Of a stretch of 33,600 nucleotides of DNA, positions 1-33,600 are shown piece by piece (position 1 is the stretch's first letter; every line of letters starts with the position of its first letter). Origin of the DNA: a virus (Duplodnaviria; Heunggongvirae; Uroviricota; Caudoviricetes); IMG/VR virus record IMGVR_UViG_2534681900_000010; one strand, given 5' to 3'. The notes below the pieces were generated by a model. That model saw only the letters and a program-made list of their open reading frames with translations. It was not told the origin of the DNA and searched no databases. The translations under genes and the position numbers were made by a program.

Positions 1-981
1 TTATAACGTCACTCCGCCTTTTAGTGGATTCAGAGCGACGGCGTTCTGCAGGTAGTCAGGCGCAAGGTGCGCATAGGTCATTGTCTGCTGAATGCTCGCA
101 TGCCCCAGAATCTGTTGCAGTGCAATTATGTTGCCCCCATTCATCATGAAATGGCTTGCGAATGTATGCCGCAGAATGTGGGTTGCCTGATTGGGAGGTA
201 TATCAGGTTTCACTCTGCGTAAAATCCCGCAAAACTTCTCATAATCTACCTTGAACAATTTGGCGCTGGCCTCCTCTTTAACTTTTTTCTCCAGTTCCTC
301 AGAAATCGGCACTGTTCGCTTTTTACCGTTTTTGGTTTTCAGGAAGGTAACCCTGCAACTTGTAATCTGTGCTGGTTTTAGCGTGGCAACTTCCGTCCAT
401 CTTCCTCCAGTGCTCAGACATAAAAGCGCGACAAGTAAGTCATCACCAGTCAAAACATTTAGCAGTTTTTCGATTTCTGCTTTTTCCAGGAACGTCATTT
501 CAGGGTTAGCCTCCGTCAGTGGCGGCAGTCCGTGAATTGGGTGTTGCCCGGAAAATTCATCCAATTGAATTAATTTTGTGAACATGCCGGATAATCGGTA
601 CATGTCGCGGTTTATCGTTGCAGCACTGATGCCATCACGTAGTCGCATGGAGCGATAATCCATCAAAGCCCTTTTGTTCATCCGACTCACTGGTATATCA
701 CCTATGCCGCTGATGGTTTTGAGCAGATGATTAAACTCTTTTGTCCCATGCTCGTGGTTTTGCCCGTGGTATTTCCACCAGATGTCGAGCAATTCTGTCA
801 AAGTTCGGCGGTCTGCTCGCTGGCCTCCCCATTCTTTCTGACTGGCATTGACGATTGTGTATCGCTCAAATGCTACCGCTTCAGCTTTTCTTTCAAATTT
901 CCTGCGGATGCGTTTTCCATCGCGACCGCGAGGCCTGATATCCACTTCATAACGTCCATCATCGAGCTTTCTGATACTCAT
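1..981 (-). CDS. int: Tyrosine site-specific integrase (P2 Int-like)
   Basis: C-terminal catalytic region ...ATHILRHTFASHFMMNGG...GHASIQQTMTYAHL (HxxR and Tyr nucleophile). Sits at the prophage left end next to the C repressor. ORF-track ORF 1..1191 is trimmed to the ATG at 979-981 (MSIRKLDDGRYEV...); the upstream extension overlaps C and is not taken as coding. Confidence 0.9.
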   Translation of the reverse strand: MSIRKLDDGRYEVDIRPRGRDGKRIRRKFERKAEAVAFERYTIVNASQKEWGGQRADRRTLTELLDIWWKYHGQNHEHGTKEFNHLLKTISGIGDIPVSRMNKRALMDYRSMRLRDGISAATINRDMYRLSGMFTKLIQLDEFSGQHPIHGLPPLTEANPEMTFLEKAEIEKLLNVLTGDDLLVALLCLSTGGRWTEVATLKPAQITSCRVTFLKTKNGKKRTVPISEELEKKVKEEASAKLFKVDYEKFCGILRRVKPDIPPNQATHILRHTFASHFMMNGGNIIALQQILGHASIQQTMTYAHLAPDYLQNAVALNPLKGGVTL

Positions 982-1093
982 AAAGCCCTCCGATGAACAC
1001 GAGTTTTCTTGTTGTTTAGCCCTTTGTGGTTGTGTGATGAATATTTTTTTACCAGTAACATGCATTTTATGTGCATGTAATGTCGGTAAATAG

Positions 1094-1387
1094 TTAGCCA
1101 GTTTTGCGGCCTGAGTGTGACGATGTTGTTTCTTCTGGCCCAGAGTGTGCGACGACCGGGGAAATCTGCCCGGATTCTGGCGCAATCTCATCTGTCATAA
1201 TCCATAATGTATATTTTTTAAACAGCGGTGTGTTGACTACTTGCTTTACGATTTGTAGTCCTGGCTCTTTATGTCCACCTTCATAATTTTTCAACGAACT
1301 AAGTGCTAATCCACTAAGCTCGCAAAATTTTTTTTGTGTTAATCCCTCGGCCTTGCGAATAGCGCGAAGTTTCTCCGATATTTTCAT
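1094..1387 (-). CDS. C: Immunity repressor C (HTH, XRE-like)
   Basis: 97-aa protein with N-terminal helix-turn-helix (GLTQKKFCELSGLALSSLKNYEGG) and a C-terminus ...YTLWIMTDEIAPESGQISPVVAHSG... recalled as P2 C-like. Divergent from cox across a short operator region. Confidence 0.85.
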   Translation of the reverse strand: MKISEKLRAIRKAEGLTQKKFCELSGLALSSLKNYEGGHKEPGLQIVKQVVNTPLFKKYTLWIMTDEIAPESGQISPVVAHSGPEETTSSHSGRKTG

Positions 1388-6522: not shown

Positions 6523-7569
6523 ATGGCGGTAAAAGTTGTTGATCTTTTTTGCGGTGCTGGCGGTTTAACGCACGGCTTACATTTGGCCGGATTGGACGTT
6601 GTCGCAGGCATTGATTTAGAAGGTGAGTGTCGTGTTGCATACGAAAGCAATAATGATGCACTTTTTATTGAAAAAGATATATCTCTGGTGACAAAAGATG
6701 AAATCGAAAATCTTTTTGAAGGGGCAAGTGTTAAAGTATTGGCCGGATGTGCACCTTGTCAGCCATTTTCTAAATATACTCAGGGAAAAGATAAAAAAAA
6801 TGATAAAAAGTGGCCGTTATTATATGAGTTTGAACGTTTAATAAAAGACACGAAACCAGAAATAGTTACAATGGAAAACGTTCCTGATGTGACAAAACAT
6901 TCTGTCTATGATGATTTTTATAATACCTTAATAGCATTGGGTTATTATGTTTGGGCAAATAAGATTGAATGTGTAGATTTTGAGGTTCCGCAAAACAGAG
7001 TGAGGCATGTATTACTCGCATCTAAATTTGCGCCGATTTCTCTGATGAAACCACAAACATCGGTAAAGCTGACAGTTAGGGATTGCATTGGTAATTTACC
7101 TTCGATTGAAGCGGGACAAGCAGATCCAAAAGACCCTCTCCATAAGGCGAGTAGATTGAGTGAAATTAATCTCAAACGTATTCTACATTCAAAACCGGGG
7201 GGGACATGGAGGGATTGGCCTGCTGAATTAATCGCTTCATGTCATGCCAAGAAAAGTGGGCAGGGATATGCCAGTGTTTATGGTCGTATGTCTTGGGATA
7301 AACCGAGTCCAACGATAACTACACTTTGTTATGGTTTTGGTAATGGACGTTTTGGTCATCCCGAGCAGCATCGTGCAATCTCACTTAGGGAAGCAGCATT
7401 ACTTCAAACGTTTCCTGTTACATATTCATTTACCCAACCGGGCGAGCCGATCAAAATGAAAAATGTCGGGCGTATGATAGGTAATGCTGTTCCTGTAAAC
7501 TTAGGTAAAGCGATTGGTCTTTCAATAGTACATCATTTGAAAGAGTTTCACCCCGCCGCTCTTAAATAA
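6523..7569 (+). CDS. DNA (cytosine-5)-methyltransferase
   Basis: All canonical C5-MTase motifs are present in order: DLFCGAGG (motif I, AdoMet), GCAPCQPFS (motif IV, catalytic Cys), TMENVPDV (motif VI), VPQNRVRHVLL (motif VIII), MIGNAVPVNLGKAIG (motif X). Visibly AT-rich relative to the phage backbone. Confidence 0.9.
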   Translation: MAVKVVDLFCGAGGLTHGLHLAGLDVVAGIDLEGECRVAYESNNDALFIEKDISLVTKDEIENLFEGASVKVLAGCAPCQPFSKYTQGKDKKNDKKWPLLYEFERLIKDTKPEIVTMENVPDVTKHSVYDDFYNTLIALGYYVWANKIECVDFEVPQNRVRHVLLASKFAPISLMKPQTSVKLTVRDCIGNLPSIEAGQADPKDPLHKASRLSEINLKRILHSKPGGTWRDWPAELIASCHAKKSGQGYASVYGRMSWDKPSPTITTLCYGFGNGRFGHPEQHRAISLREAALLQTFPVTYSFTQPGEPIKMKNVGRMIGNAVPVNLGKAIGLSIVHHLKEFHPAALK

Positions 7570-8267
7570 GCCTGAGTATCAAGATAAGTTTGTATATTTT
7601 CAAGGATGCAGTTGAGATAATGAAAAACTTCATCCTTCATTTCTGTTAGTGTATCAATAGATGTATCTCTGCCTTTGTTTCTAAATGATTCAGAACCATG
7701 AGCAAGGTCGTTTCTGGCCTTTTTTATTGGAAGTAAATTGCAACCATTTCGCGTTATTTCTGAATCTGTATCTGCTGAGAAGCCATATTTTTCAGCGACT
7801 TCTCTAATTTTTCTAGCGTCAACATTTCCAGAAAATAACGGATTTTTATTTGATTGGATAAGTTTTTTGTGAGCGTTTAGCCACTCTTTAAATATAACTT
7901 TTGCAATGTTCCCTTGTGAGAAATCTATTTTCCCATTTGGTGATTGTAAACTATGAAATGCTACTCTTGTAAGGTTTTCATTTACAGTGTCTGCACATAA
8001 TGATTCATTAGACATTAAAACATTATGAATGTCTTCTATTGCATTGGAAATGGTTGCTTCAATGAGATTGTACAATATAATAAATGCATTAGCCTTTAAA
8101 ATATGAGTCATATCAATATCAATGGGTTGTTGTATAGGCGCATCGCTTGTATTCTCTTTATAGACTAGAGATGGTTTTTTGTTTATTAGTAACTGAATGA
8201 ATGAGAAGTATTCATTAATATCTTGCATTCTTTCTTGGAAAAGAATTTTACTTGTCATCTCCTCCAT
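7548..8267 (-). CDS. HEPN-like predicted RNase (239 aa), second gene of the DUF262 operon
   Basis: Rx4H motif in KKARNDLAHGSESF near the C-terminal third. Start ATG is 10 nt downstream of the DUF262 gene stop; its 3' end overlaps the convergent MTase by 22 bp. AT-rich. Confidence 0.6.
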   Translation of the reverse strand: MEEMTSKILFQERMQDINEYFSFIQLLINKKPSLVYKENTSDAPIQQPIDIDMTHILKANAFIILYNLIEATISNAIEDIHNVLMSNESLCADTVNENLTRVAFHSLQSPNGKIDFSQGNIAKVIFKEWLNAHKKLIQSNKNPLFSGNVDARKIREVAEKYGFSADTDSEITRNGCNLLPIKKARNDLAHGSESFRNKGRDTSIDTLTEMKDEVFHYLNCILENIQTYLDTQAYLRAAG

Positions 8268-8277
8268 TTACTTGGCC

Positions 8278-9423
8278 TCACTCCATATTTTCATCTTCAT
8301 TTTCATCTTCGTCGACAATATTTTCTGGAATGTCTTTCCCAAGCAACTTGTTTTTTACATATTCAATGCGTGCTTTAACTTTGGGTTTAGAGTTGCTGGC
8401 ATCTGAACGTGTGTGCGTGATAAACTCTTTCGAGTTGATCCAGTCATCAATATTTTTAGGAACTAAATTGGGTTCTTCCTCTAGTGCTAATGTTGCACCG
8501 ACGGCAAGAGCTTCGAAACGAATCCTAGGAACAGTGGTGGCGTTTTTCACCTTTCTGAAACCATTTGGGAAATGTGTATTAATGAATTGGCTCATTTTAT
8601 GAAATTTTTCCGCCAGCATAGCTGCGTTTTCATCTGTATATTCGGCATTTTTACGTTTTAAATAGGTTGTAAGAAATTCATCAACGCTTTTTCTGAAATC
8701 AAGATATTCTTCAGTGTAGGCAAAGTAGCGTAGTGCCAATTCTGGATATTCAGAGCGACGTTTTCTTGCATCTCCCAAAGGACAGATGCTATGAAATAGA
8801 GGATCTTCGGAAATTTCATTGATAAATGCAAGGAATGGCCCATCATGGCTACCTTGCCGTTGTTCCATTGTTGTTAGTTTTTTTCCGCCAGTATTCAGAC
8901 GGTCAAAAATTTCCCTTCTTGTCTCTTCGTCACAATGTTCTGTAAGTTCAATCATTCGAATAGTTTTTCTATCAAAACGTAGGCGACGGGGAGTACTGAA
9001 ATCAGAATATTTAAAACCATTGGCTGTGACTAATTTCTGCAGGCCTTCAAGAGTTAGTTTGTTATTGGTAAATTGGTGTAGGGTTCTTATTCGTTGGCTA
9101 CCGTCAACAATTTCAAGTCTACCTTCATTTTCACCTGAACCAATATCGGCAACGAATATGTAAGGTATAGGAAGATTTAAAAGCAGAGATTCAATGAAAC
9201 GGGATTTTTGCTTGTTGTTCCAGATAAACTCCCTTTGGTAGTCAGGTATAAAAAGCTCTGCCTCATCTTCTTCAAGACCATTCTGAAATTTGTCCACAAT
9301 AACACTTATCGGGAACTCACGTATTTCATGGTCAGTGATTTTTTGCATTTCAACTATGCTTTGATCTAAAAGCTCCTTTTCTTCTTTAGTTTTTGGGGTA
9401 TGTTCTGCTTTTTTTCTCGCCAT
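8278..9423 (-). CDS. DUF262 (ParB/GmrSD-N-like) domain protein (381 aa)
   Basis: N-terminal region ...FIPDYQREFIWNNKQKSRFIESLLLNLPIPYIFVADIGSGENEGRLEIVDGSQRIRTLHQF contains the DGxQR signature of DUF262. Acidic C-terminal tail (DEDENEDENME). RBS AGGAT about 10 nt upstream. AT-rich. Confidence 0.7.
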   Translation of the reverse strand: MARKKAEHTPKTKEEKELLDQSIVEMQKITDHEIREFPISVIVDKFQNGLEEDEAELFIPDYQREFIWNNKQKSRFIESLLLNLPIPYIFVADIGSGENEGRLEIVDGSQRIRTLHQFTNNKLTLEGLQKLVTANGFKYSDFSTPRRLRFDRKTIRMIELTEHCDEETRREIFDRLNTGGKKLTTMEQRQGSHDGPFLAFINEISEDPLFHSICPLGDARKRRSEYPELALRYFAYTEEYLDFRKSVDEFLTTYLKRKNAEYTDENAAMLAEKFHKMSQFINTHFPNGFRKVKNATTVPRIRFEALAVGATLALEEEPNLVPKNIDDWINSKEFITHTRSDASNSKPKVKARIEYVKNKLLGKDIPENIVDEDENEDENME

Positions 9424-9539: not shown

Positions 9540-9562
9540 AGAACCGACTCATGAAGCGGGCG

Positions 9563-15557: not shown

Positions 15558-16067
15558 ATGATGACGCTGATTATTCCGCGAAAGGAGGCTCCCGTGTCCG
15601 GTGAGGGTACGGTGGTCATCCCGCAACCGGCAGGCGACGAGCCGGTGATTAAAAACACGTTCTTTTTTCCCGATATCGACCCGAAGCGCGTCCGGGAACG
15701 TATGCGCCTTGAGCAGACCGTCGCCCCCGCCCGTCTGCGTGAGGCCATCAAGTCAGGCATGGCGGAGACGAATGCGGAGCTGTACGAGTACCGCGAACAG
15801 AAAATTGCTGCCGGTTTTTCGCGTCTGGCTGACGTCCCGGCGGACGATATCGACGGTGAAAGCATCAAAGTTTTTTACTACGAGCGCGCCGTGTGTGCGA
15901 TGGCGACCGCGTCGCTTTATGAGCGTTATCGCGGCGTGGATGCCAGTGCGAAAGGCGATAAAAAGGCCGACAGCATAGACAGCACCATTGATGAGCTGTG
16001 GCGGGATATGCGCTGGGCAGTGGCGCGCATCCAGGACAAGCCGCGCTGCATCGTGAGTCAAATCTGA
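15558..16067 (+). CDS. L: Capsid completion protein
   Basis: 169 aa from the ATG at 15558 (RBS AGAGG), the size recalled for P2 gpL. Confidence 0.8.
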   Translation: MMTLIIPRKEAPVSGEGTVVIPQPAGDEPVIKNTFFFPDIDPKRVRERMRLEQTVAPARLREAIKSGMAETNAELYEYREQKIAAGFSRLADVPADDIDGESIKVFYYERAVCAMATASLYERYRGVDASAKGDKKADSIDSTIDELWRDMRWAVARIQDKPRCIVSQI

Positions 16068-16270
16068 TGAAGACCTTTGCGCTACAGGGCGACACGCTCG
16101 ACGCCATTTGTGTCCGGTATTACGAGCGCACTGAGGGCGTGGTCGAGGCCGTGCTCGCCGCAAATCCGGGACTGGCTGAACTGGGGGCGGTGCTGCCGCA
16201 CGGCACCGCCGTCGAACTGCCCGACGTTCAGACCGCGCCCGTGGCTGAAACTGTCAATCTGTGGGAGTAA
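16067..16270 (+). CDS. X: Tail protein X (LysM-like)
   Basis: 67-aa product MKTFALQGDTLDAICVRYYERTEG..., with the ATG overlapping the L stop (TGATG). Confidence 0.8.
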   Translation: MKTFALQGDTLDAICVRYYERTEGVVEAVLAANPGLAELGAVLPHGTAVELPDVQTAPVAETVNLWE

Positions 16271-16273
16271 CGC

Positions 16274-16555
16274 ATGACAGCAGAAGAAAAAAGCGTCCTG
16301 TCGCTTTTCATGATTGGGGTGCTGATTGTTGTCGGCAAGGTGCTTGCCGGTGGTGAACCCATCACCCCGCGTCTGTTTATCGGGCGCATGTTGCTCGGTG
16401 GTTTTGTCTCGATGGTTGCCGGTGTTGTTCTGGTGCAGTTTCCTGACCTGTCACTGCCTGCGGTGTGCGGCATCGGCTCCATGCTGGGTATCGCCGGTTA
16501 TCAGGTGATTGAGATTGCCATTCAGCGCCGCTTTAAGGGCAGGGGGAAACCGTAA
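16274..16555 (+). CDS. Y: Holin
   Basis: 93-aa protein with hydrophobic transmembrane segments, first gene of the lysis cassette. Confidence 0.85.
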   Translation: MTAEEKSVLSLFMIGVLIVVGKVLAGGEPITPRLFIGRMLLGGFVSMVAGVVLVQFPDLSLPAVCGIGSMLGIAGYQVIEIAIQRRFKGRGKP

Positions 16556-17052
16556 TGCCGGTAATTAACACGCATCAGAATATCGCCGCCTTTCTCGACA
16601 TGCTGGCCGTGTCCGAAGGGACGGCGAATCATCCGCTGACGAAAAACCGGGGCTATGACGTGATAGTCACCGGACTGGACGGAAAGCCGGAAATTTTCAC
16701 CGACTACAGTGACCACCCGTTCGCGCATGGCCGACCGGCGAAGGTGTTTAACCGTCGCGGTGAAAAATCCACGGCCTCCGGTCGCTATCAGCAGCTTTAC
16801 CTGTTCTGGCCGCACTACCGCAAACAGCTTGCCCTGCCGGATTTCAGTCCGTTGTCACAGGACAGGCTCGCCATTCAGTTGATCCGCGAACGCGGTGCAC
16901 TGGATGACATCCGGGCGGGACGCATTGAGCGCGCCATTTCACGCTGTCGCAATATCTGGGCGTCCCTGCCGGGTGCCGGTTACGGTCAGCGTGAGCATTC
17001 ACTGGAAAAACTGGTCACCGTCTGGCGTACCGCCGGCGGCGTACCGGCTTAA
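16555..17052 (+). CDS. K: Endolysin (phage lysozyme)
   Basis: 165 aa at the P2 gpK position directly after the holin. Confidence 0.85.
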   Translation: MPVINTHQNIAAFLDMLAVSEGTANHPLTKNRGYDVIVTGLDGKPEIFTDYSDHPFAHGRPAKVFNRRGEKSTASGRYQQLYLFWPHYRKQLALPDFSPLSQDRLAIQLIRERGALDDIRAGRIERAISRCRNIWASLPGAGYGQREHSLEKLVTVWRTAGGVPA

Positions 17053-17066
17053 ACGGAGTAAACACC

Positions 17067-17492
17067 ATGAAGAAATTATCCCTTTCACTGATGCTGAACG
17101 TGTCGCTGGCGCTGATGCTGGCACTGTCCCTGATTTACCCGCAGAGCGTGGCCGTCAGTTTTGTCGCCGCCTGGGCGATTCTGGCGACGGTTATCTGTGT
17201 GGTTGCCGGTGGTGTCGGCGTGTATGCCACTGAGTATGTACTGGAACGCTACGGGCGGGAGCTGCCGCCGGAATCGCTGGCCGTGAAGATTGTCACGTCG
17301 CTGTTTTTGCAGCCGGTGCCGTGGCGCAGACGGGCGGCGGCTCTGGTGGTGATGGTGGCGACGTTTATCTCGCTGGTCGCTGCCGGGTGGATTTTTACCG
17401 CGCTGATTTATCTTGTGGCGTCGCTGTTTTTCCGGCTGATACGTAAAGCCTGTCGTCAGCGTCTTGAGGGGCGGGAACTATGTCAAAGCTGA
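17067..17492 (+). CDS. lysA: Lysis timing membrane protein LysA
   Basis: 141-aa multi-transmembrane protein at the P2 lysA position. Confidence 0.8.
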   Translation: MKKLSLSLMLNVSLALMLALSLIYPQSVAVSFVAAWAILATVICVVAGGVGVYATEYVLERYGRELPPESLAVKIVTSLFLQPVPWRRRAAALVVMVATFISLVAAGWIFTALIYLVASLFFRLIRKACRQRLEGRELCQS

Positions 17493-17905
17493 TGATTGTG
17501 CTGGTCGTGTTGTTATCGCTGGCGGTGGCCGGTCTGTTTCTGGCGAAGCACAAAAATGCCAGCCTGCGCGCCTCGCTGGACAGGGCGAATAACGTCGCCA
17601 GTGAACAGCAGACGACCATCACCATGCTGAAAAATCAGCTTCATGTTGCCATCACCAGGGCAGACAAAAACGAGCTGGCGCAGGTGGCACTGCGTCAGGA
17701 ACTGGAGAACGCCGCGAAGCGTGAAGCACAGCGCGAGAAAACCATCACGAGGTTACTCAATGAAAACGAAGATTTTCGCCGCTGGTACGGTGCTGACCTG
17801 CCTGATGCTGTGCGCCGGTTGCACCAGCGCCCGGCCTGCGCAGACGCCAGTGATTGTCCACAACGCCTGCCCGAAAGTGAGCCTTTGCCCGATGCCGGGC
17901 AGTGA
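17480..17905 (+). CDS. lysB: Spanin inner-membrane subunit (Rz-like) LysB
   Basis: 141 aa with an N-terminal transmembrane helix (MSKLMIVLVVLLSLAVAGLFLA) and a coiled-coil-like periplasmic part. Confidence 0.8.
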   Translation: MSKLMIVLVVLLSLAVAGLFLAKHKNASLRASLDRANNVASEQQTTITMLKNQLHVAITRADKNELAQVALRQELENAAKREAQREKTITRLLNENEDFRRWYGADLPDAVRRLHQRPACADASDCPQRLPESEPLPDAGQ

Positions 17906-18050
17906 CCCGCAGAAGAACGGCGATTTAAGTGCCGATATCCGGCTGCTTGAGAACGCGCTGGCACGCTGTGCCAGCCAGGTAAAAATGATTAAACACTGTC
18001 AGGACGAAAACGATGCTCAAACCCGACAGCCTGCGCAGGGCGCTGACTGA
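17760..18050 (+). CDS. lysC: Spanin outer-membrane lipoprotein (Rz1-like) LysC
   Basis: 96-aa ORF in the +1 frame overlapping the lysB 3' end; lipoprotein signal with lipobox (MKTKIFAAGTVLTCLMLCAGC). Confidence 0.75.
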   Translation: MKTKIFAAGTVLTCLMLCAGCTSARPAQTPVIVHNACPKVSLCPMPGSDPQKNGDLSADIRLLENALARCASQVKMIKHCQDENDAQTRQPAQGAD

Positions 18051-18480
18051 TGCCGTCACGGTGCTGAAAACTAACCCCGATATGCTGCGGATATTCGTGG
18101 ATAACGGGAGTATTGCCTCCACACTGGCGACGTCGCTGTCATTCGAAAAGCGTTACACGCTCAATGTCATTGTGACCGACTTTACCGGTAATTTTGACCT
18201 GCTCATCGTGCCGGTGCTGGCGTGGCTGCGGGAAAATCAGCCCGACATCATGACCACCGACGAAGGCCAGAAAAAGGGCTTCACGTTTTATGCGGACATC
18301 AACAATGACAGCAGCTTTGATATCAGTATCAGCCTGATGCTGACCGAGCGCACGCTGGTCAGTGAGGTTGAAGGTGCGCTGCATGTGAAGAATATCCCGG
18401 AACCCCCGCCGCCGGAGCCGGTCACCCGCCCGGTGGAGCTTTATATCAATGGTGAACTGGTGAGCAAGTGGGATGAATGA
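18013..18480 (+). CDS. R: Tail completion protein R
   Basis: 155 aa; position and size as recalled for P2 gpR. Confidence 0.85.
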   Translation: MLKPDSLRRALTDAVTVLKTNPDMLRIFVDNGSIASTLATSLSFEKRYTLNVIVTDFTGNFDLLIVPVLAWLRENQPDIMTTDEGQKKGFTFYADINNDSSFDISISLMLTERTLVSEVEGALHVKNIPEPPPPEPVTRPVELYINGELVSKWDE

Positions 18481-18925
18481 GTTTAAGCGTTTTGAAGACC
18501 GGCTGACCGGACTTATTGAATCGCTGTCACCGTCAGGGCGTCGGCGACTGAGTGCCGAACTGGCGAAACGTCTGCGGCAGAGTCAGCAGCGCCGGGTGAT
18601 GGCACAGAAAGCCCCGGACGGCACACCCTACGCACCACGCCAGCAGCAGAGCGCCAGAAAAAAGACCGGTCGTGTTAAGCGAAAAATGTTTGCGAAACTT
18701 ATCACCAGTCGTTTTTTGCATATCCGCGCCAGCCCGGAACAGGCATCAATGGAATTTTACGGCGGGAAGTCACCGAAAATCGCCAGTGTGCATCAGTTTG
18801 GTCTGTCGGAAGAAAACCGGAAAGACGGTAAGAAAATTGATTATCCGGCGCGCCCTCTGCTCGGCTTCACCGGTGAGGATGTGCAGATGATTGAAGAGAT
18901 TATCCTGTCTCACCTCGACCGTTAG
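18473..18925 (+). CDS. S: Tail completion protein S
   Basis: 150 aa; position and size as recalled for P2 gpS; overlaps the R stop. Confidence 0.85.
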   Translation: MNEFKRFEDRLTGLIESLSPSGRRRLSAELAKRLRQSQQRRVMAQKAPDGTPYAPRQQQSARKKTGRVKRKMFAKLITSRFLHIRASPEQASMEFYGGKSPKIASVHQFGLSEENRKDGKKIDYPARPLLGFTGEDVQMIEEIILSHLDR

Positions 18926-18991
18926 TTGTGCCATTCCCGACACCTCATCGTCACATTGCCGCCGGTATGACCCGGCGGCATCCTTCCCGTT

Positions 18992-19633
18992 ATGAACACA
19001 CTCGCAAATATTCAGGAACTCGCGCGCGCACTGCGCAACATGATTCGCACCGGCGTTATCGTCGAAACCGACCTTAACGCCGGTCGCTGCCGTGTGCAGA
19101 CCGGCGGCATGTGTACCGACTGGCTGCAGTGGCTGACCCATCGCGCCGGACGTTCGCGCACATGGTGGGCACCTTCCGTGGGGGAACAGGTGCTGATTCT
19201 GGCTGTGGGCGGTGAACTCGACACGGCGTTCGTTCTGCCGGGGATTTATTCCGGCGATAACCCCGCGCCGTCTGCGTCGGCGGATGCCCTGCATATCCGT
19301 TTCCCTGACGGGGCGGTGATTGAGTATGAACCTGAAACCAGTGCACTCACGGTAAGCGGAATTAAAACGGCCAGCGTGACGGCTTATGATTCTGTTACCG
19401 CCACGGTGCCGGTGGTCATGGTGAAAGCGTCAACCCGCGTCACCCTGGACACGCCGGAGGTGGTCTGCACAAACAAGCTGATCACCGGCACGCTGGAAGT
19501 GCAGAAGGGCGGGAAGATGCACGGCAACATCGAGCATACCGACGGGAAATTCACTTCTAACGGCGTTCAGGTGGATGACCACGGTCACGGTGGTGTTAAG
19601 TCAGGAGACAACTGGACACAGGGGACAAAATGA
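18992..19633 (+). CDS. V: Baseplate spike protein
   Basis: 213 aa at the P2 gpV position, starting the V-W-J-I-H-G operon. Confidence 0.85.
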   Translation: MNTLANIQELARALRNMIRTGVIVETDLNAGRCRVQTGGMCTDWLQWLTHRAGRSRTWWAPSVGEQVLILAVGGELDTAFVLPGIYSGDNPAPSASADALHIRFPDGAVIEYEPETSALTVSGIKTASVTAYDSVTATVPVVMVKASTRVTLDTPEVVCTNKLITGTLEVQKGGKMHGNIEHTDGKFTSNGVQVDDHGHGGVKSGDNWTQGTK

Positions 19634-21423: not shown

Positions 21424-24183
21424 ATGAGCACGAAATTTAAAACCGTTATCACTACTGCCGGAGCCGCAAAGCTGGCAGCCGCCACTGTCCCCGGCGGGAA
21501 AAAAGTAAACCTGTCTGCAATGGCCGTGGGTGACGGTAATGGCAAATTGCCGGTGCCGGATGCCGGTCAGACGAAACTGGTGCATGAGGTCTGGCGTCAC
21601 GCTCTGAATAAAGTCAGCGTGGATAACAAGAATAAAAACTATATCGTGGCTGAACTGGTTGTACCGCCCGAAGTGGGCGGCTTCTGGATGCGTGAGCTTG
21701 GTCTGTATGACGATGCCGGAACACTGATTGCGGTATCCAACATGGCAGAAAGCTATAAGCCAGAACTGGCTGAAGGCTCCGGACGTGCGCAGACCTGCCG
21801 CATGGTTATTATTCTCAGCAACGTGGCGTCCGTTGAGCTGAGTATTGATGCCAGCACGGTGATGGCGACGCAGGATTACGTCGATGACAAAATCGCAGAG
21901 CATGAGCAGTCCCGCCGCCATCCTGACGCCACGCTGACAGAAAAAGGTTTTACTCAGTTAAGCAGTGCAACAAACAGCACCAGTGAAAAGCTGGCGGCAA
22001 CGCCAAAAGCGGTCAAGGCAGCAAATGACAACGCAAATTCACGTCTGGCGAAAAATCAGAACGGTGCAGATATCCAGGATAAATCAGTTTTTCTGGACAA
22101 TGTTGGCGTTACCAGCCTGACGTTTATGAAAAACAATGGCGAAATGCCGCTTGATGCTGATCTGAATACATTTGGTCCCGTTAAGGCTTATCTGGGGATC
22201 TGGTCTAAAGCTACCTCAACTAACGCAACACTGGAGAAAAATTTCCCGGAAGATAATGCTGTCGGTGTGCTTGAGGTTTTTGCTGCCGGCAATTTTGCAG
22301 GTACGCAACGCTTTACCACAAGAGACGGCAATGTATACATGCGTAAACTCGCCAATAAGTGGAATGGCACTGATGGTCCGTGGGGCGTATGGCGTCACAC
22401 TCAATCAGCTACCCGCCCTTTGAGTACGACTATAGACCTGAATACGCTTGGAGCCGCCGAACATCTTGGTTTATGGCGTAACAGTAGCTCGGCTATAGCT
22501 TCATATGAACGCAATTATCCAGAGGAAGGCGGCTTTGCTCAGGGGACGCTTGAGATCCTCGAAGGCGGGAATTATGGAAGAACGCAACGTTATACCACTC
22601 GCCGTGGAAATATGTATGTCCGCTGCCTTGCGGCAAGCTGGGATGCATCAAATCCGCAGTGGGAACCGTGGTTAAGAGTCGGTCATCAGTCAGAGAGTCG
22701 TTATTACGAAGGTGATTTGAATGATGTAACCTCACCAGGTATTTACAGCGTTACAGGTAAAGCGACCAACGGTCCAGTACTGGACGGAAACGGCGTGACT
22801 GTACTCGGCATTCTGGAAGTGTTGAGGCGGTTTGATGGTGTTAATGTATGGCAGCGTTATACAACTGCCGGAACAGGTACAACCCTTAAAGGCCGCACCT
22901 TTGAGCGCGTCTTTACCGGCAGCTCATGGAGCGAATGGCGGGAAGTCTACACCTCGTATTCACTTCCCCTGAATCTGGGTATCGGCGGTGCTGTGGCAAA
23001 GCTCACCAGCCTGGACTGGCAGACCTACGATTTTGTGCCGGGCAGTCTGATAACCGTTAGGCTGGATAATATGACCAATATTCCCGACGGTATGGACTGG
23101 GGCGTCATTGATGGCAACCTGATAAACATCGCAGTTGGTCCGAGTGATGATTCCGGTACGGGGCGCTCAATGCATGTATGGCGCAGCACTGTAAGTAAAG
23201 CGAACTACCGATTTTTTATGGTGCGTATTTCAGGAAATCCGGGAAGCCGCACGATCACAGCAAGACGAGTACCAATCATTGACGAAGCCCAGACATGGGG
23301 CGCGAAACAGACATTCAGTGCTGGCCTTTCTGGTGAACTGTCCGGCAATGCGGCGACAGCAACAAAGCTGAAAACAGCCCGTAAAATTAATAACGTTTCG
23401 TTTGATGGAACATCAGATATTAACCTGACGCCGAAAAATATTGGTGCATTTGCTTCAGGAAAAACAGGAGACACCGTTGCGAATGATAAAGCCGTTGGGT
23501 GGAACTGGAGTAGCGGAGCCTATAACGCAACTACTGGTGGGGCATCAACGTTAATTCTTCATTTTAATATCGGTGAAGGAAGTTGTCCCGCCGCCCAGTT
23601 CCGCGTTAATTATAAGAACGGCGGTATTTTTTATCGTTCTGCTCGTGACGGTTACGGATTCGAGGCTGACTGGTCTGAGTTTTATACCACAACGCGAAAA
23701 CCTACAGCGGGAGATGTCGGTGCACTGCCGTTATCTGGTGGTCAATTGAATGGTGCTCTGGGTATAGGAACATCCAGTGCTCTTGGCGGTAATTCGATTG
23801 TTTTGGGTGATAATGACACGGGCTTTAAACAAAATGGTGATGGTAATCTGGATGTTTATGCTAATAGCGTCCATATTATGCGCTTTGTCTCGGGAAGTAT
23901 TCAAAGTAATAAAACCATAAATATTACGGGGCGTGTTAATCCCTCGGATTACGGTAACTTTGATTCCCGCTATGTCCGGGATATCCGGCTTGGTGGTGCT
24001 GCCACATACAAACCTGCGAACAATGGCATGACATGGACACATCAGGCACCGTCCGGGTGTGTATATTCCGGCATTATTGTTCAGGATACCGGCTCAAACT
24101 CTGCCGATAACATTGGTGGTGTATATTACAGGCCGGTTCAGAAATACATTAACGGGACATGGTATAACGTGGCGCAGGTATAA
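21424..24183 (+). CDS. H: Tail fibre protein (enlarged relative to P2 H)
   Basis: 919 aa. The N-terminal part is a conserved baseplate-attachment region, followed by tandem repeats and the ATATKLKTARKINNVSFDGTSDINLTPKNIGAF tail-fibre motif. P2 H is recalled as about 670 aa. Confidence 0.9.
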   Translation: MSTKFKTVITTAGAAKLAAATVPGGKKVNLSAMAVGDGNGKLPVPDAGQTKLVHEVWRHALNKVSVDNKNKNYIVAELVVPPEVGGFWMRELGLYDDAGTLIAVSNMAESYKPELAEGSGRAQTCRMVIILSNVASVELSIDASTVMATQDYVDDKIAEHEQSRRHPDATLTEKGFTQLSSATNSTSEKLAATPKAVKAANDNANSRLAKNQNGADIQDKSVFLDNVGVTSLTFMKNNGEMPLDADLNTFGPVKAYLGIWSKATSTNATLEKNFPEDNAVGVLEVFAAGNFAGTQRFTTRDGNVYMRKLANKWNGTDGPWGVWRHTQSATRPLSTTIDLNTLGAAEHLGLWRNSSSAIASYERNYPEEGGFAQGTLEILEGGNYGRTQRYTTRRGNMYVRCLAASWDASNPQWEPWLRVGHQSESRYYEGDLNDVTSPGIYSVTGKATNGPVLDGNGVTVLGILEVLRRFDGVNVWQRYTTAGTGTTLKGRTFERVFTGSSWSEWREVYTSYSLPLNLGIGGAVAKLTSLDWQTYDFVPGSLITVRLDNMTNIPDGMDWGVIDGNLINIAVGPSDDSGTGRSMHVWRSTVSKANYRFFMVRISGNPGSRTITARRVPIIDEAQTWGAKQTFSAGLSGELSGNAATATKLKTARKINNVSFDGTSDINLTPKNIGAFASGKTGDTVANDKAVGWNWSSGAYNATTGGASTLILHFNIGEGSCPAAQFRVNYKNGGIFYRSARDGYGFEADWSEFYTTTRKPTAGDVGALPLSGGQLNGALGIGTSSALGGNSIVLGDNDTGFKQNGDGNLDVYANSVHIMRFVSGSIQSNKTINITGRVNPSDYGNFDSRYVRDIRLGGAATYKPANNGMTWTHQAPSGCVYSGIIVQDTGSNSADNIGGVYYRPVQKYINGTWYNVAQV
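22159..22960 (+). repeat. Three tandem ~92-aa coding repeats inside tail fibre gene H
   Basis: Repeat units start at 22159 (DLNTFGPVKAYLGIW...), 22435 (DLNTLGAAEHLGLW...) and 22714 (DLNDVTSPGIYSV...). Each carries G.LE(V/I)...QR(F/Y)TT..G..Y.R...W..W. Periods are 276 and 279 nt. Confidence 0.7.
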
Positions 24184-24935: not shown

Positions 24936-25529
24936 ATGTTTACTAAGCGACGATTAAAAAATATTAACTGGGAGGCAAGTTCAGTGATTCTTGCTATGGT
25001 TCTCTTTGTTGGAAATATATTTTATACAAATCATCGTGATGATATAAGCATGGAGGCTGAGAGGGACAGTATCAGAACAATGTTTGCATATGAAATCGCT
25101 AATAACCATCGCGCTCTCACTTTTCTTGATAAAACGAGATATATTGGCTTTGACGAAAATTCGGAGCATTTTGTTGGCGAGCCTTTTGCCATTAATGTCA
25201 AATCATTAGGGGGGCCTCGCTTACAGATTGCATTAAACCAGAGTGATAAAGTGTTTAAATCCTACTTCAGCGAATTAAGTAAGCTTGATAAAGAGGATGT
25301 TACTCTTCTTATGGACTATTACCATGAGCAAAGCATCCTGCTGGAGCGTGTAAAATCTACGTTACAGAAGATGAAAAGTGGTAATGATATTAAAGTTGAT
25401 ATTGATGGTTACTTATTAGAAGAACACTTCATGAATGAGCTTAATCTTTCTAATATTTTGCTTAAACGCTATAGCCATTTGTTGTCACAACACGCCAAAG
25501 AACATAAAACAAAAGATTTACATAATTGA
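24936..25529 (+). CDS. Hypothetical membrane-anchored protein (197 aa) at the Z/fun accessory locus
   Basis: AT-rich ORF between G and FI. RBS AAGGTG 6 nt upstream. N-terminal hydrophobic segment SSVILAMVLFVGNIFY after a basic MFTKRRLK start. No recognisable catalytic motif. Confidence 0.6.
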   Translation: MFTKRRLKNINWEASSVILAMVLFVGNIFYTNHRDDISMEAERDSIRTMFAYEIANNHRALTFLDKTRYIGFDENSEHFVGEPFAINVKSLGGPRLQIALNQSDKVFKSYFSELSKLDKEDVTLLMDYYHEQSILLERVKSTLQKMKSGNDIKVDIDGYLLEEHFMNELNLSNILLKRYSHLLSQHAKEHKTKDLHN

Positions 25530-25858: not shown

Positions 25859-27049
25859 ATGAGTGACTATCATCACGGCGTGCAGGTGCTGGAGATTAAC
25901 GACGGCACCCGCGTCATTTCCACCGTATCCACCGCCATTGTTGGCATGGTCTGCACGGCCAGCGATGCGGATGCGGAAACCTTCCCCGTCAATAAACCGG
26001 TGCTGATCACCAATGTGCAGAGCGCGATTGCAAAGGCCGGTAAAAAAGGCACGCTGGCGGCATCGTTGCAGGCCATCGCTGACCAGTCAAAACCGGTCAC
26101 CGTTGTCGTGCGCGTGGAAGACGGCACCGGCGACGACGAAGAAACGAAACTCGCGCAGACCGTTTCCAATATCATCGGCACCACTGACGAAAACGGTCAG
26201 TACACCGGACTGAAAGCCCTGATGGGCGCAGAGTCGGTTACCGGCGTTAAACCGCGCATTCTCGGCGTACCGGGACTGGACACCAAAGAGGTGGCGGTTG
26301 CACTGGCATCGGTATGCCAGGAACTGAATGCCTTCGGGTATATCAGCGCATGGGGCTGTAAAACCATTTCCGAGGCAAAAGCCTACCGTCAGAATTTCAG
26401 TCAGCGTGAGCTGATGGTCATCTGGCCGGATTTCCTTGCATGGGATACGGTCACCAGTACCACCGCCACCGCGTATGCCACCGCCCGTGCGCTGGGGCTG
26501 CGTGCCAGAATCGACCAGGAGCAGGGCTGGCATAAAACGCTGTCCAACGTCGGGGTAAACGGTGTTACCGGCATCAGCGCATCTGTATTCTGGGATTTGC
26601 AGAAGTCTGGCACTGATGCTGACCTGCTGAACGAGGCAGGCGTCACAACGCTGGTTCGCCGCGACGGTTTCCGTTTCTGGGGTAACCGTACCTGCTCCGA
26701 TGACCCACTTTTCCTCTTTGAAAGCTACACACGTACCGCGCAGGTACTGGCCGACACGATGGCTGAGGCGCACATGTGGGCTATTGATAAGCCCATCACC
26801 GCAACGCTGATTCGCGACATCATTGATGGCATCAATGCCAAATTCCGCGAACTGAAAAACAACGGTTATATCGTGGATGGCACATGCTGGTTCAGTGAAG
26901 AAGCCAACGATGCGGAAACCCTCAAGGCCGGAAAACTGTATATCGACTACGACTATACACCGGTGCCTCCTCTCGAAAACCTGACCCTGCGCCAGCGTAT
27001 TACTTCAAGATACCTGGCAAGTCTGGTCACCTCGGTTAACAGCAATTAA
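25859..27049 (+). CDS. FI: Tail sheath protein
   Basis: 396 aa; size and position as recalled for P2 gpFI. Confidence 0.9.
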   Translation: MSDYHHGVQVLEINDGTRVISTVSTAIVGMVCTASDADAETFPVNKPVLITNVQSAIAKAGKKGTLAASLQAIADQSKPVTVVVRVEDGTGDDEETKLAQTVSNIIGTTDENGQYTGLKALMGAESVTGVKPRILGVPGLDTKEVAVALASVCQELNAFGYISAWGCKTISEAKAYRQNFSQRELMVIWPDFLAWDTVTSTTATAYATARALGLRARIDQEQGWHKTLSNVGVNGVTGISASVFWDLQKSGTDADLLNEAGVTTLVRRDGFRFWGNRTCSDDPLFLFESYTRTAQVLADTMAEAHMWAIDKPITATLIRDIIDGINAKFRELKNNGYIVDGTCWFSEEANDAETLKAGKLYIDYDYTPVPPLENLTLRQRITSRYLASLVTSVNSN

Positions 27050-32161: not shown

Positions 32162-32242
32162 TGCTTTTATTTTATCTATTTGTTTTATAAGGATAAATTA
32201 AATAAAATGGCACCATCAACAAAACCGGAAGAGGTGCTCGCG

Positions 32243-32461
32243 ATGTTTCATTGTCCTTTATGCCAGCATGCCGCACATGCGCGTACAAGCCGCTATATCA
32301 CTGACACGACAAAAGAGCGTTATCATCAGTGCCAGAACGTGAATTGCAGTGCCACGTTCATCACTTATGAGTCGGTACAGCGATACATCGTGAAGCCGGG
32401 AGAAGTCCACGCCGTAAGGCCGCACCCGTTGCCGTCAGGGCAGCAAATTATGTGGATGTGA
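32243..32461 (+). CDS. ogr: Late gene transcriptional activator Ogr (zinc finger)
   Basis: 72-aa product MFHCPLCQHAAHARTSRYITDTTKERYHQCQNVNCSATF... with a CxxC...CxxxxxC zinc-binding arrangement, recalled as P2 Ogr-like. RBS GGAAGAGG upstream of the ATG at 32243. Confidence 0.85.
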   Translation: MFHCPLCQHAAHARTSRYITDTTKERYHQCQNVNCSATFITYESVQRYIVKPGEVHAVRPHPLPSGQQIMWM

Positions 32462-32618: not shown

Positions 32619-32697
32619 CCTCAATTTGCCTGCTGCTTAATGCATTGCAGATGATTTGCTTCCGTTATACTACCGTCAGTTGATAGCGGGAGTATTT

Positions 32698-33600
32698 ATG
32701 AATCAATCTTATGGACGGCTGGTCAGTCGGGCGGCGATTGCTGCGACGGCGATGGCTTCGCTGCTATTGCTGATTAAAATTTTTGCATGGTGGTATACCG
32801 GGTCGGTGAGTATTCTCGCCGCGCTGGTGGATTCGCTGGTGGATATCGGCGCGTCGTTGACGAATTTACTGGTGGTGCGATATTCCCTGCAACCTGCCGA
32901 CGATAATCACTCGTTTGGTCACGGTAAAGCTGAGTCCCTCGCGGCGCTGGCGCAAAGTATGTTTATCTCCGGTTCGGCACTATTCCTGTTTTTGACGGGT
33001 ATTCAACATCTGGTATCTCCAACACCGATGACAGATCCAGGCGTCGGGGTTATCGTGACAATTGTGGCGCTAATTTGTACGATTATCCTTGTCTCGTTTC
33101 AGCGTTGGGTGGTGCGCCGGACGCAAAGCCAGGCGGTGCGGGCTGATATGCTACATTACCAGTCTGATGTTATGATGAACGGCGCAATTCTGCTGGCGCT
33201 GGGGTTGTCCTGGTACGGCTGGCATCGCGCCGATGCTCTGTTTGCATTGGGGATCGGCATCTATATTTTATATAGCGCGTTACGCATGGGATATGAGGCG
33301 GTACAGTCATTACTGGATCGCGCATTGCCTGATGAGGAACGGCAAGAAATTATTGATATCGTGACTTCCTGGCCGGGTGTTAGCGGCGCTCACGATCTTC
33401 GCACGCGGCAGTCAGGGCCGACCCGCTTTATTCAGATTCATTTGGAAATGGAAGACTCTCTGCCTTTGGTTCAGGCACATATGGTGGCGGATCAGGTAGA
33501 GCAGGCTATTTTACGGCGTTTTCCGGGATCGGATGTGATTATCCATCAGGACCCCTGTTCCGTCGTACCCAGGGAGGGTAAACGGTCTATGCTTTCATAA
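32698..33600 (+). CDS. fieF: Cation-efflux pump FieF (CDF family ferrous-iron/zinc exporter), host gene
   Basis: 300-aa product [49 protein letters not shown]... recalled as E. coli FieF/YiiP. ORF-track ORF trimmed to the ATG at 32698; stop at 33598-33600. Confidence 0.9.

Follow-up and report, generated by a model that had tools for sequence, protein, structure and literature searches.

The window analysed in this work, that is, the whole stretch of 33,600 nucleotides, is filled by a P2-like prophage, and its genes follow prophage order. An integrase gene is found at positions 1-1191 on the minus strand, cos lies near position 9562, and the structural genes extend after cos as far as ogr (32180-32461). 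Beyond these, positions 32656-33600 carry fieF, an E. coli chromosomal gene with 100% identity to E. coli strain N53. Over positions 17000-18500, the DNA matches that of numerous Peduovirus (P2-like) phages infecting E. coli and Yersinia at 97-98% identity, with 97.9% recorded against Peduovirus entries. Of the 5426 complete genomes of E. coli, 1609 (about 30%) contain the DNA of the lysB-lysC pair. An Rfam scan of the whole window returned zero matches. The lysis genes are encoded on the plus strand and comprise the holin gene Y (16274-16555; PF04550 Phage_holin_3_2, E=2.6e-42; phrog_175, holin), the endolysin gene K (16555-17052; phrog_90, endolysin) and lysA (17067-17492; NF038378 and phrog_162), the last of which overlaps lysB by 13 nt. 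On the other side of the lysB-lysC pair are the tail completion genes R (18013-18480, plus strand; PF06891 P2_Phage_GpR, E=4.6e-45) and S (18473-18925). The holin, endolysin and lysA genes are directly upstream of lysB and lysC, which is the lysis-cassette location expected for a two-component spanin.

The first gene of the pair, lysB, occupies positions 17480-17905 on the plus strand, starts with ATG and encodes a protein of 141 amino acids, the i-spanin (Rz-like) of the pair. LysB scores 171.6 bits (E=9.7e-51) against the model TIGR03495, "Rz-like lysis system protein LysB", whose curated cut-off is 92.75, with residues 7-140 aligned to profile positions 2-135 of 135, and a PHROG search matches it to the Rz-like spanins of phrog_89 (E=4e-60). 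An N-terminal transmembrane helix spans approximately residues 4-22 and is followed by a long periplasmic helix. Hydropathy agrees with this: 15-residue Kyte-Doolittle means rise to 2.4-3.0 within residues 1-21, and those from residue 13 onward are low or negative. A single-sequence AlphaFold2 model depicts LysB as one continuous helix from residue 2 to residue 115 (mean pLDDT 81.6), followed by a disordered C-terminal tail that carries Cys120 and Cys126. The modelled shape, with one N-terminal transmembrane domain and a helical periplasmic domain, is typical of an i-spanin, and the protein would adopt an N-in, C-out topology.

The second gene, lysC, runs from position 17760 to 18050 on the plus strand and encodes the o-spanin (Rz1-like) of the pair, a 96-aa precursor that begins MKTKIFAAGTVLTCLMLCAGCTSARPAQ and is recognized by NF038368, PF23793 and phrog_456. 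Its ATG at 17760 is located within a larger open frame (17643-18050), in the +1 frame relative to lysB ((17760-17480) mod 3 = 1), and is preceded by a Shine-Dalgarno sequence of its own, GAGG at 17749-17752 (plus strand), which lies within lysB, 7 nt 5' of the start codon. The two genes share a dual-coding segment of 146 nt (17760-17905, plus strand), where LysB residues 94-141 and LysC residues 1-49 are specified by the same DNA, and lysC extends 145 nt beyond the lysB stop. At its 3' end, lysC also overlaps gene R, which is read in another frame, by 38 nt (18013-18050, plus strand). The sequence-only reading of this DNA had placed the pair exactly at 17480-18050 with a lysC start at 17760, and had described lysC as overlapping the 3' part of lysB in the +1 frame and extending past it; the open reading frame list and the sequence bear out both statements. 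Its title, however, called the genes "nested", a term that does not apply, as lysC is overlapped and not embedded, while the word "overlapped" in its text is correct. Specifically, lysC starts inside lysB in a different frame and stops beyond it, which is what defines the overlapped class of spanin genes (PMC3556154; PMC6139136).

Open frames in alternative frames are easily encountered in this window: 49 of at least 30 amino acids are found within positions 16000-19500, a loose lipoprotein pattern matches 17 of the 1068 candidate starts in the window, and several deposited genomes annotate no gene at the position of lysC. It could thus be argued that the +1 frame is open by chance and that no LysC protein is made. 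The match of the product to curated protein families points in the opposite direction. LysC scores 122.4 bits (E=6.4e-36) against NF038368, "Rz1-like lysis system protein LysC" (P2_Rz1), an equivalog model with a cut-off of 27, and covers its profile positions 1-85 of 85; it also scores 54.6 bits (E=1e-14) against PF23793, where the cut-off is again 27. Accordingly, the assignment of the pair as an Rz/Rz1-like spanin, proposed from the letters of the DNA in the sequence-only reading, is substantiated by TIGR03495 for LysB and NF038368 for LysC, both above their cut-offs. The GAGG element at the appropriate spacing also argues against a fortuitous frame, and a tblastn search recovered the LysC frame in 273 phage records, whose hosts include Escherichia, Yersinia, Salmonella, Klebsiella, Burkholderia, Pseudomonas, Erwinia and Halomonas.

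Conservation was examined in an alignment of 12 sequences, consisting of the window and 11 extracted loci with LysC identities of 35-94%. The loci derive from phages of enterobacteria, of Burkholderia, of Pseudomonas and of Halomonas, namely 186, SW9, RCIP0057, YenM_31.17, Milagro, 4LV2017, SopEPhi, phi52237, Halomonas 4908, phiCTX and P2. The lysC frame is open in all 12, always +1 relative to lysB and from the same start region, with an overlap of 146-176 nt. Cys21, Cys37, Cys43, Cys70 and the pair N53-G54 of LysC are invariant throughout, down to about 35% amino acid identity. An ATG or GTG start is found at alignment column 1 in 11 of the sequences, the exception being phiCTX, which reads ATC at the lysC start aligned by blast and was assigned an upstream in-frame start instead. 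The GAGG upstream of lysC recurs in P2, 186, SW9, RCIP0057, 4LV2017, SopEPhi and the Halomonas phage. Moreover, among the 12 aligned sequences the dual-coding segment is better conserved than the remainder of either protein. LysB sequences agree pairwise at 0.48 on average in this segment versus 0.28 in the non-overlapped periplasmic part, and the signal peptide of LysC (residues 1-20) has a mean identity of 0.56, whereas signal peptides normally evolve fast. Within the segment, the invariant C14-L15 of LysC and the invariant L107-P108 of LysB share the same nucleotides. At the other extreme of divergence, LysC of the window is 100% identical to an unannotated frame of Yersinia phage L-413C. 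The scores of the family models, together with the conservation of the frame and of Cys21 in the window and 11 homologues, establish LysC as real beyond chance, and the probability of a fortuitous frame is negligible.

A different question is where LysC begins, because public records disagree on this point. The equivalent of start 17760, giving 96 aa, is used in the RefSeq records of P2 and 186 and in phage Milagro. PGAP, whose annotation of E. coli genomes gives the genes the names lysB and lysC, uses the equivalent of 17805, giving a product of 81 aa ("MLCAGC...") devoid of a functional signal peptide, while in many phage records, among them PhiR44_1, P2DC1, SW9 and RCIP0057, the gene begins at the equivalent of 17892 and encodes 52 aa ("MPGSDP..."). 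In addition, a separate PHROG family, phrog_952, holds a truncated form of 62 aa, and the lysC CDS is absent from the annotation of L-413C, YenM_31.17, 4LV2017 and SopEPhi. The prediction that open reading frame callers easily miss a gene arranged in this way is therefore amply borne out by records that start at an internal ATG or omit the gene. Taken at face value, the shorter entries would mean that LysC is real and yet begins at ATG 17805 or ATG 17892, in which case the product would be small and no lipoprotein. Candidate starts at 17643, 17805 and 17892 were rejected, being not conserved and lacking a Shine-Dalgarno sequence, which only 17760 possesses. In several homologues, in fact, the downstream methionines are replaced, Met16 by Leu or Thr and Met45 by Leu, whereas the first 20 positions of LysC are 56% identical on average and the start codon at column 1 is lost only in phiCTX. 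Initiation at 17805 would leave "MLCAG|C" with neither an n-region nor an h-region, and so no export. The curated RefSeq records of P2 and 186 and SpaninDB all adopt the equivalent of 17760, and Kongari et al. 2018 (PMC6139136) likewise draw attention to missed genes of this type and regard short forms as the usual product of callers that avoid overlaps. A downstream start is, in light of this evidence, highly improbable, and the 96-aa precursor is considered in what follows.

The signal peptide of the 96-aa precursor, residues 1-20, reads MKTKIFAAGTVLTCLMLCAG and, with the Cys21 codon (17820-17822), is encoded at positions 17760-17822 on the plus strand. Its n-region carries K2 and K4 and is followed by a hydrophobic core of 13 residues, and the mature part opens with CTS. 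The lipobox reads L-C-A-G before Cys21, so that Ala is found at -2, Gly at -1 and Thr at +2; position -3 is occupied by Cys18, unlike the Leu, Val or Ile of the consensus. As a result, the DOLOP pattern [LVI][ASTVI][GAS]C and the core of PROSITE PS51257 both fail on LysC, and only the looser G+LPP pattern matches. Given that 17 starts in the window satisfy the loose pattern, such a match is by itself no better than chance as evidence for a lipoprotein. In other words, the string LCAGC noticed in the sequence-only reading is indeed present, but the canonical lipobox that it implied is not. Cys18 itself is excluded as acylation site, since a Leu would then occupy -1.

The failure of the strict patterns is nevertheless not read as a refutation, as homologues display canonical lipoboxes at the same cysteine and SpaninDB lists LCAG. 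Specifically, LLAG-C is found at the same columns in phiCTX and in the Halomonas phage, and TLSG-C in 4LV2017, SopEPhi and YenM_31.17. For the P2 family, SpaninDB (Kongari et al. 2018) gives the signal peptide MKTKIFAAGMVLTCLMLCAG, the lipobox LCAG, the mature N-terminus CTS, the same lysC start and the Shine-Dalgarno sequence GAGGT; the same study (PMC6139136) describes further non-consensus spanin lipoboxes, one of them verified experimentally. On the strength of the LAGC and LSGC motifs of its homologues at the same column and of the SpaninDB entry, LysC is probably a lipoprotein. The predicted mature form consists of 76 amino acids (Cys21-Asp96) with 7 prolines (9%) and has periplasmic cysteines at positions 37, 43, 70 and 80. 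These four residues, with Cys120 and Cys126 of LysB, might engage in intermolecular disulfides. According to the +2 rule, Asp at +2 acts as a signal for retention in the inner membrane; as LysC has Thr at this position, it would be expected to be sorted to the outer membrane.

The architecture described above is identical to that of P2 (NC_001895), where lysB occupies 7922-8347, lysC occupies 8202-8492 and R begins at 8455. Phage P2 and the window have in common the gene order Y, K, lysA, lysB, lysC, R, the lengths of the two products (141 and 96 aa), the +1 frame, the overlaps of lysC with lysB (146 nt) and with R (38 nt), the Shine-Dalgarno sequence and the LCAG-C lipobox. The overlap of lysC with R in P2 has been remarked upon (PMC3091744). 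Across the region of 571 nt, the window differs from P2 at 20 nucleotides with zero indels. The alignment with the P2 proteins proposed in the sequence-only reading thus disclosed no disruption of either frame and six substitutions in each product; LysC is 93.8% identical to its P2 counterpart and differs by R2K, P25R, P28Q, P34H, T52K and Q62L. These differences are merely allelic.

Homologous pairs are also found in other Peduoviridae, including phage 186 (the LysB homologue and Orf28), Fels-2/SopEPhi, KS14, KL3, phi52237 and phiCTX, with LysC identities of 35-74%. As in the window, lysC of these pairs overlaps lysB in the +1 frame, and its product has Cys21 along with three to four conserved cysteines in the periplasmic part. 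Several of them differ in having canonical lipoboxes, namely LSGC, LAGC or LCAC with Leu at -3, and many lack the two LysB cysteines of the P2/186 group. Moreover, 186, SW9 and RCIP0057 have no separate lysA between the endolysin gene and lysB.

A further hairpin feature, located inside lysC at positions 17957-17975 (plus strand), is shared with P2. Its counterpart, P2 8399-8417, is annotated as "putative transcription attenuator, O operon", and the same hairpin is present in the window. The segment 17945-17990 folds with -16.1 kcal/mol (z=-2.1), modestly better than shuffled sequences. A terminator scan of positions 16200-19100 did not call the attenuator hairpin, which is not followed by a T-tract. 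The attenuator label is thus an annotation transferred from P2, and the function of the hairpin is putative.

The lambda Rz/Rz1 pair offers a second term of comparison. In a scheme that LysB and LysC are predicted to follow too, lambda combines a type II protein of the inner membrane, helical in its periplasmic domain, with a small outer-membrane lipoprotein that contains proline; the gene for the latter starts within the first gene and is read in the +1 frame, and the two genes are the final pair of the lysis cassette (PMC6139136; PMC3091744). The arrangement differs in that lambda Rz1 lies wholly within Rz, that is, embedded, whereas lysC of the window runs past the end of lysB. The mature LysC is also longer and poorer in proline than the Rz1 of the lambda-like phage KS5, which has 46 aa and 26% Pro (PMC3091744). 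Lambda-type Rz/Rz1 families do not appear among the Pfam, NCBIfam and PHROG hits of LysB and LysC, and a PDB sequence search with LysC yielded chance-level hits only (E about 0.6), with no solved structure of a relative. LysB and LysC would act like Rz and Rz1, yet form a separate P2 sequence family.

Altogether, the locus almost certainly carries a P2-type two-component spanin pair on a P2-like (Peduovirus) prophage integrated beside fieF in E. coli. The overlapped class of spanin was already known, and in this respect the window holds nothing new. The lysC gene of P2 is said to have been described since 2004, when Markov and coworkers reportedly defined it and found that lysB and lysC complement lambda Rz/Rz1; the same authors are also said to have described, for P2, a complex of the subunits and its requirement for disruption of the outer membrane. 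P2 lysB and lysC serve, indeed, as the paradigm of the overlapped class (PMC6139136; PMC3556154; PMC3091744), and both reviews and databases list the pair. Experimental work on spanins has been carried out almost wholly on lambda Rz/Rz1, as noted by Kongari et al. 2018 (PMC6139136), and P2 LysB and LysC are described as predicted to act in the same manner (PMC6139136; PMC3091744).

The ribosome-binding site located inside lysB drives translation of LysC in the +1 frame. On the lambda model, the following sequence of events can then be envisaged. By analogy with Rz1, the precursor would be exported, lipid-modified on Cys21, cleaved by signal peptidase II and, with Thr and not Asp at +2, directed to the outer membrane, where it would reside in the inner leaflet. 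LysB and LysC would bind each other via their periplasmic C-terminal regions, in a complex that would span the periplasm through the peptidoglycan mesh. Once the holin and the endolysin have brought about removal of the peptidoglycan (PMC6139136; PMC3091744), the complex may then fuse the inner membrane with the outer one, so that the last barrier would be eliminated and the progeny released. For LysB and LysC, the lipidation, the sorting to the outer membrane, the assembly of a complex and the fusion of membranes are, in this scheme, steps that we infer from the lambda system.

The annotation of the two proteins would also accommodate a role as regulators of the timing of lysis rather than as disruptors of the outer membrane. 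The label "lysis regulatory protein" persists in many records, and the remarks in the P2 record include "nonessential; affects timing of lysis" as well as "regulation of lysis". A passage of PMC3556154 further indicates that missense alleles of P2 lysC affecting the first two prolines shift the timing of lysis in cells with compromised peptidoglycan. Curated protein families and the spanin literature, however, class P2 LysB and LysC as equivalents of Rz and Rz1, and an effect on timing is compatible with spanin function. Lambda Rz and Rz1, likewise, seem non-essential under laboratory shaking conditions. A purely regulatory role accordingly appears extremely unlikely, and disruption of the outer membrane by a spanin is the reading retained for the pair.

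The only details of the locus that depart from the textbook are the Cys at lipobox position -3 and the replacement of three prolines in the LysC linker. Specifically, P25R, P28Q and P34H replace three N-terminal prolines of P2 LysC, the one at position 25 being the first that the mature P2 protein contains, and this allele is common to the window and L-413C. The replaced prolines lie where P2 lysC missense alleles altered lysis timing, as far as a passage of PMC3556154, citing Markov 2004, indicates. In each of the three substitutions, it is the middle nucleotide of the LysC codon that is changed. The nucleotide changes behind P25R and P34H fall at third positions in lysB and are synonymous there. 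The change behind P28Q (nt 17842) belongs to LysB codon 121, whose first position also differs from P2, giving A121T; in comparison with PhiR44_1, the P28Q change is synonymous in lysB. It is conceivable, if rather doubtful, that the overlap in this way lets the proline-rich linker of LysC drift or undergo tuning with little penalty for LysB, and that natural P2-like prophages could carry variants in the timing of lysis.

The significance of the locus resides mainly in its annotation. Public records carry at least three different lysC starts or omit the gene altogether, and both PGAP and one PHROG family reflect truncation. Among these starts, the one at 17760, giving the product of 96 aa, is the only one predicted to yield an exportable lipoprotein.

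Public annotations of the P2-like lysis cassette disagree on where lysC begins, with starts equivalent to window positions 17760, 17805 and 17892. Specifically, the curated records of P2 and 186 adopt the 17760 start and a product of 96 aa, PGAP places the start of the E. coli gene at 17805 with an 81-aa product opening with MLCAGC, and several phage records start at 17892 and retain only 52 aa, while some public annotations carry no lysC CDS at all. The truncated form is even collected in PHROGs as a distinct family, phrog_952. Among the three starts, only 17760 is associated with both a Shine-Dalgarno sequence and the full signal peptide.

In the P2/186 group, the LysC lipobox (residues 18-21, window 17811-17822) reads C-A-G/C, with a cysteine at position -3 relative to the predicted acylation site, whereas more distant homologues have a leucine there (LAGC, LSGC); strict lipobox consensus patterns do not match the window version. 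Upstream, within the signal peptide, the residues C14-L15 (17799-17804) are unchanged in 12 of the 12 aligned sequences, and the same nucleotides encode the equally invariant L107-P108 of LysB, a clear example of dual-coding constraint. Differences from P2 are found further downstream (17832-17861), where three prolines of P2 LysC, including P25, the first of the mature protein, are replaced in the window by R25, Q28 and H34. All three replacements (P25R, P28Q and P34H) affect the second position of the LysC codon; P25R and P34H are silent in LysB, while P28Q falls within LysB codon 121, which also differs from P2 (A121T). The lysC gene contains, in addition, a hairpin (CTGGCAC-GCT-GTGCCAG, 17957-17975; fold energy -16.1 kcal/mol, z=-2.1), whose counterpart in P2 is annotated as 'putative transcription attenuator, O operon'. 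No T-tract follows this hairpin on its 3' side, and the terminator scan made no call there.

LysA (17067-17492) belongs to phrog_162, labelled 'endolysin', and P2 RefSeq names lysA likewise. This looks like a propagated mislabel, because the protein is mostly hydrophobic and LysA has been described as an antiholin with four transmembrane domains (PMC3091744). The actual endolysin, K (16555-17052), has no Pfam or NCBIfam match at E<=0.01, its matches being confined to the PHROG endolysin families.

Where tail-fibre gene H would be expected, an ORF (21424-24183) encodes 919 aa and looks longer than H of P2; this apparent extra length suggests a different receptor-binding region. A 197-aa ORF (24936-25529) lies between the tail-fibre assembly gene G and a gene at 25859-27049, probably the sheath gene FI, in a location corresponding to the Z/fun locus of P2. 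Its sole match is phrog_3829, of unknown function (E=6e-137), with none in Pfam or PADLOC. Finally, S and V are separated by just 66 nt (18925-18992): orf30, found on the minus strand of this interval in P2 (NC_001895), is missing from the window and likewise from phage PhiR44_1.

The genes of the window are arranged in prophage order. On the left, the first nucleotides are exactly the integrase stop codon (gene at 1-1191, minus strand), and on the right ogr (32180-32461) is followed by the host gene fieF (32656-33600), whose stop codon forms the right end, with 100% identity to E. coli strain N53. A variable cargo region (6523-9423), flanked by replication gene A and by cos and lying at the position of tin/old in P2, holds three genes, encoding a Dcm-type C5 cytosine methyltransferase (6523-7569, plus strand), a HEPN MAE_28990-like protein (7548-8267, minus strand) and a GmrSD_N/DUF262 protein (8278-9423, minus strand) that matches PADLOC NsnA and PD-T4-2_A. 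Together, these three genes probably constitute an anti-phage defence module.
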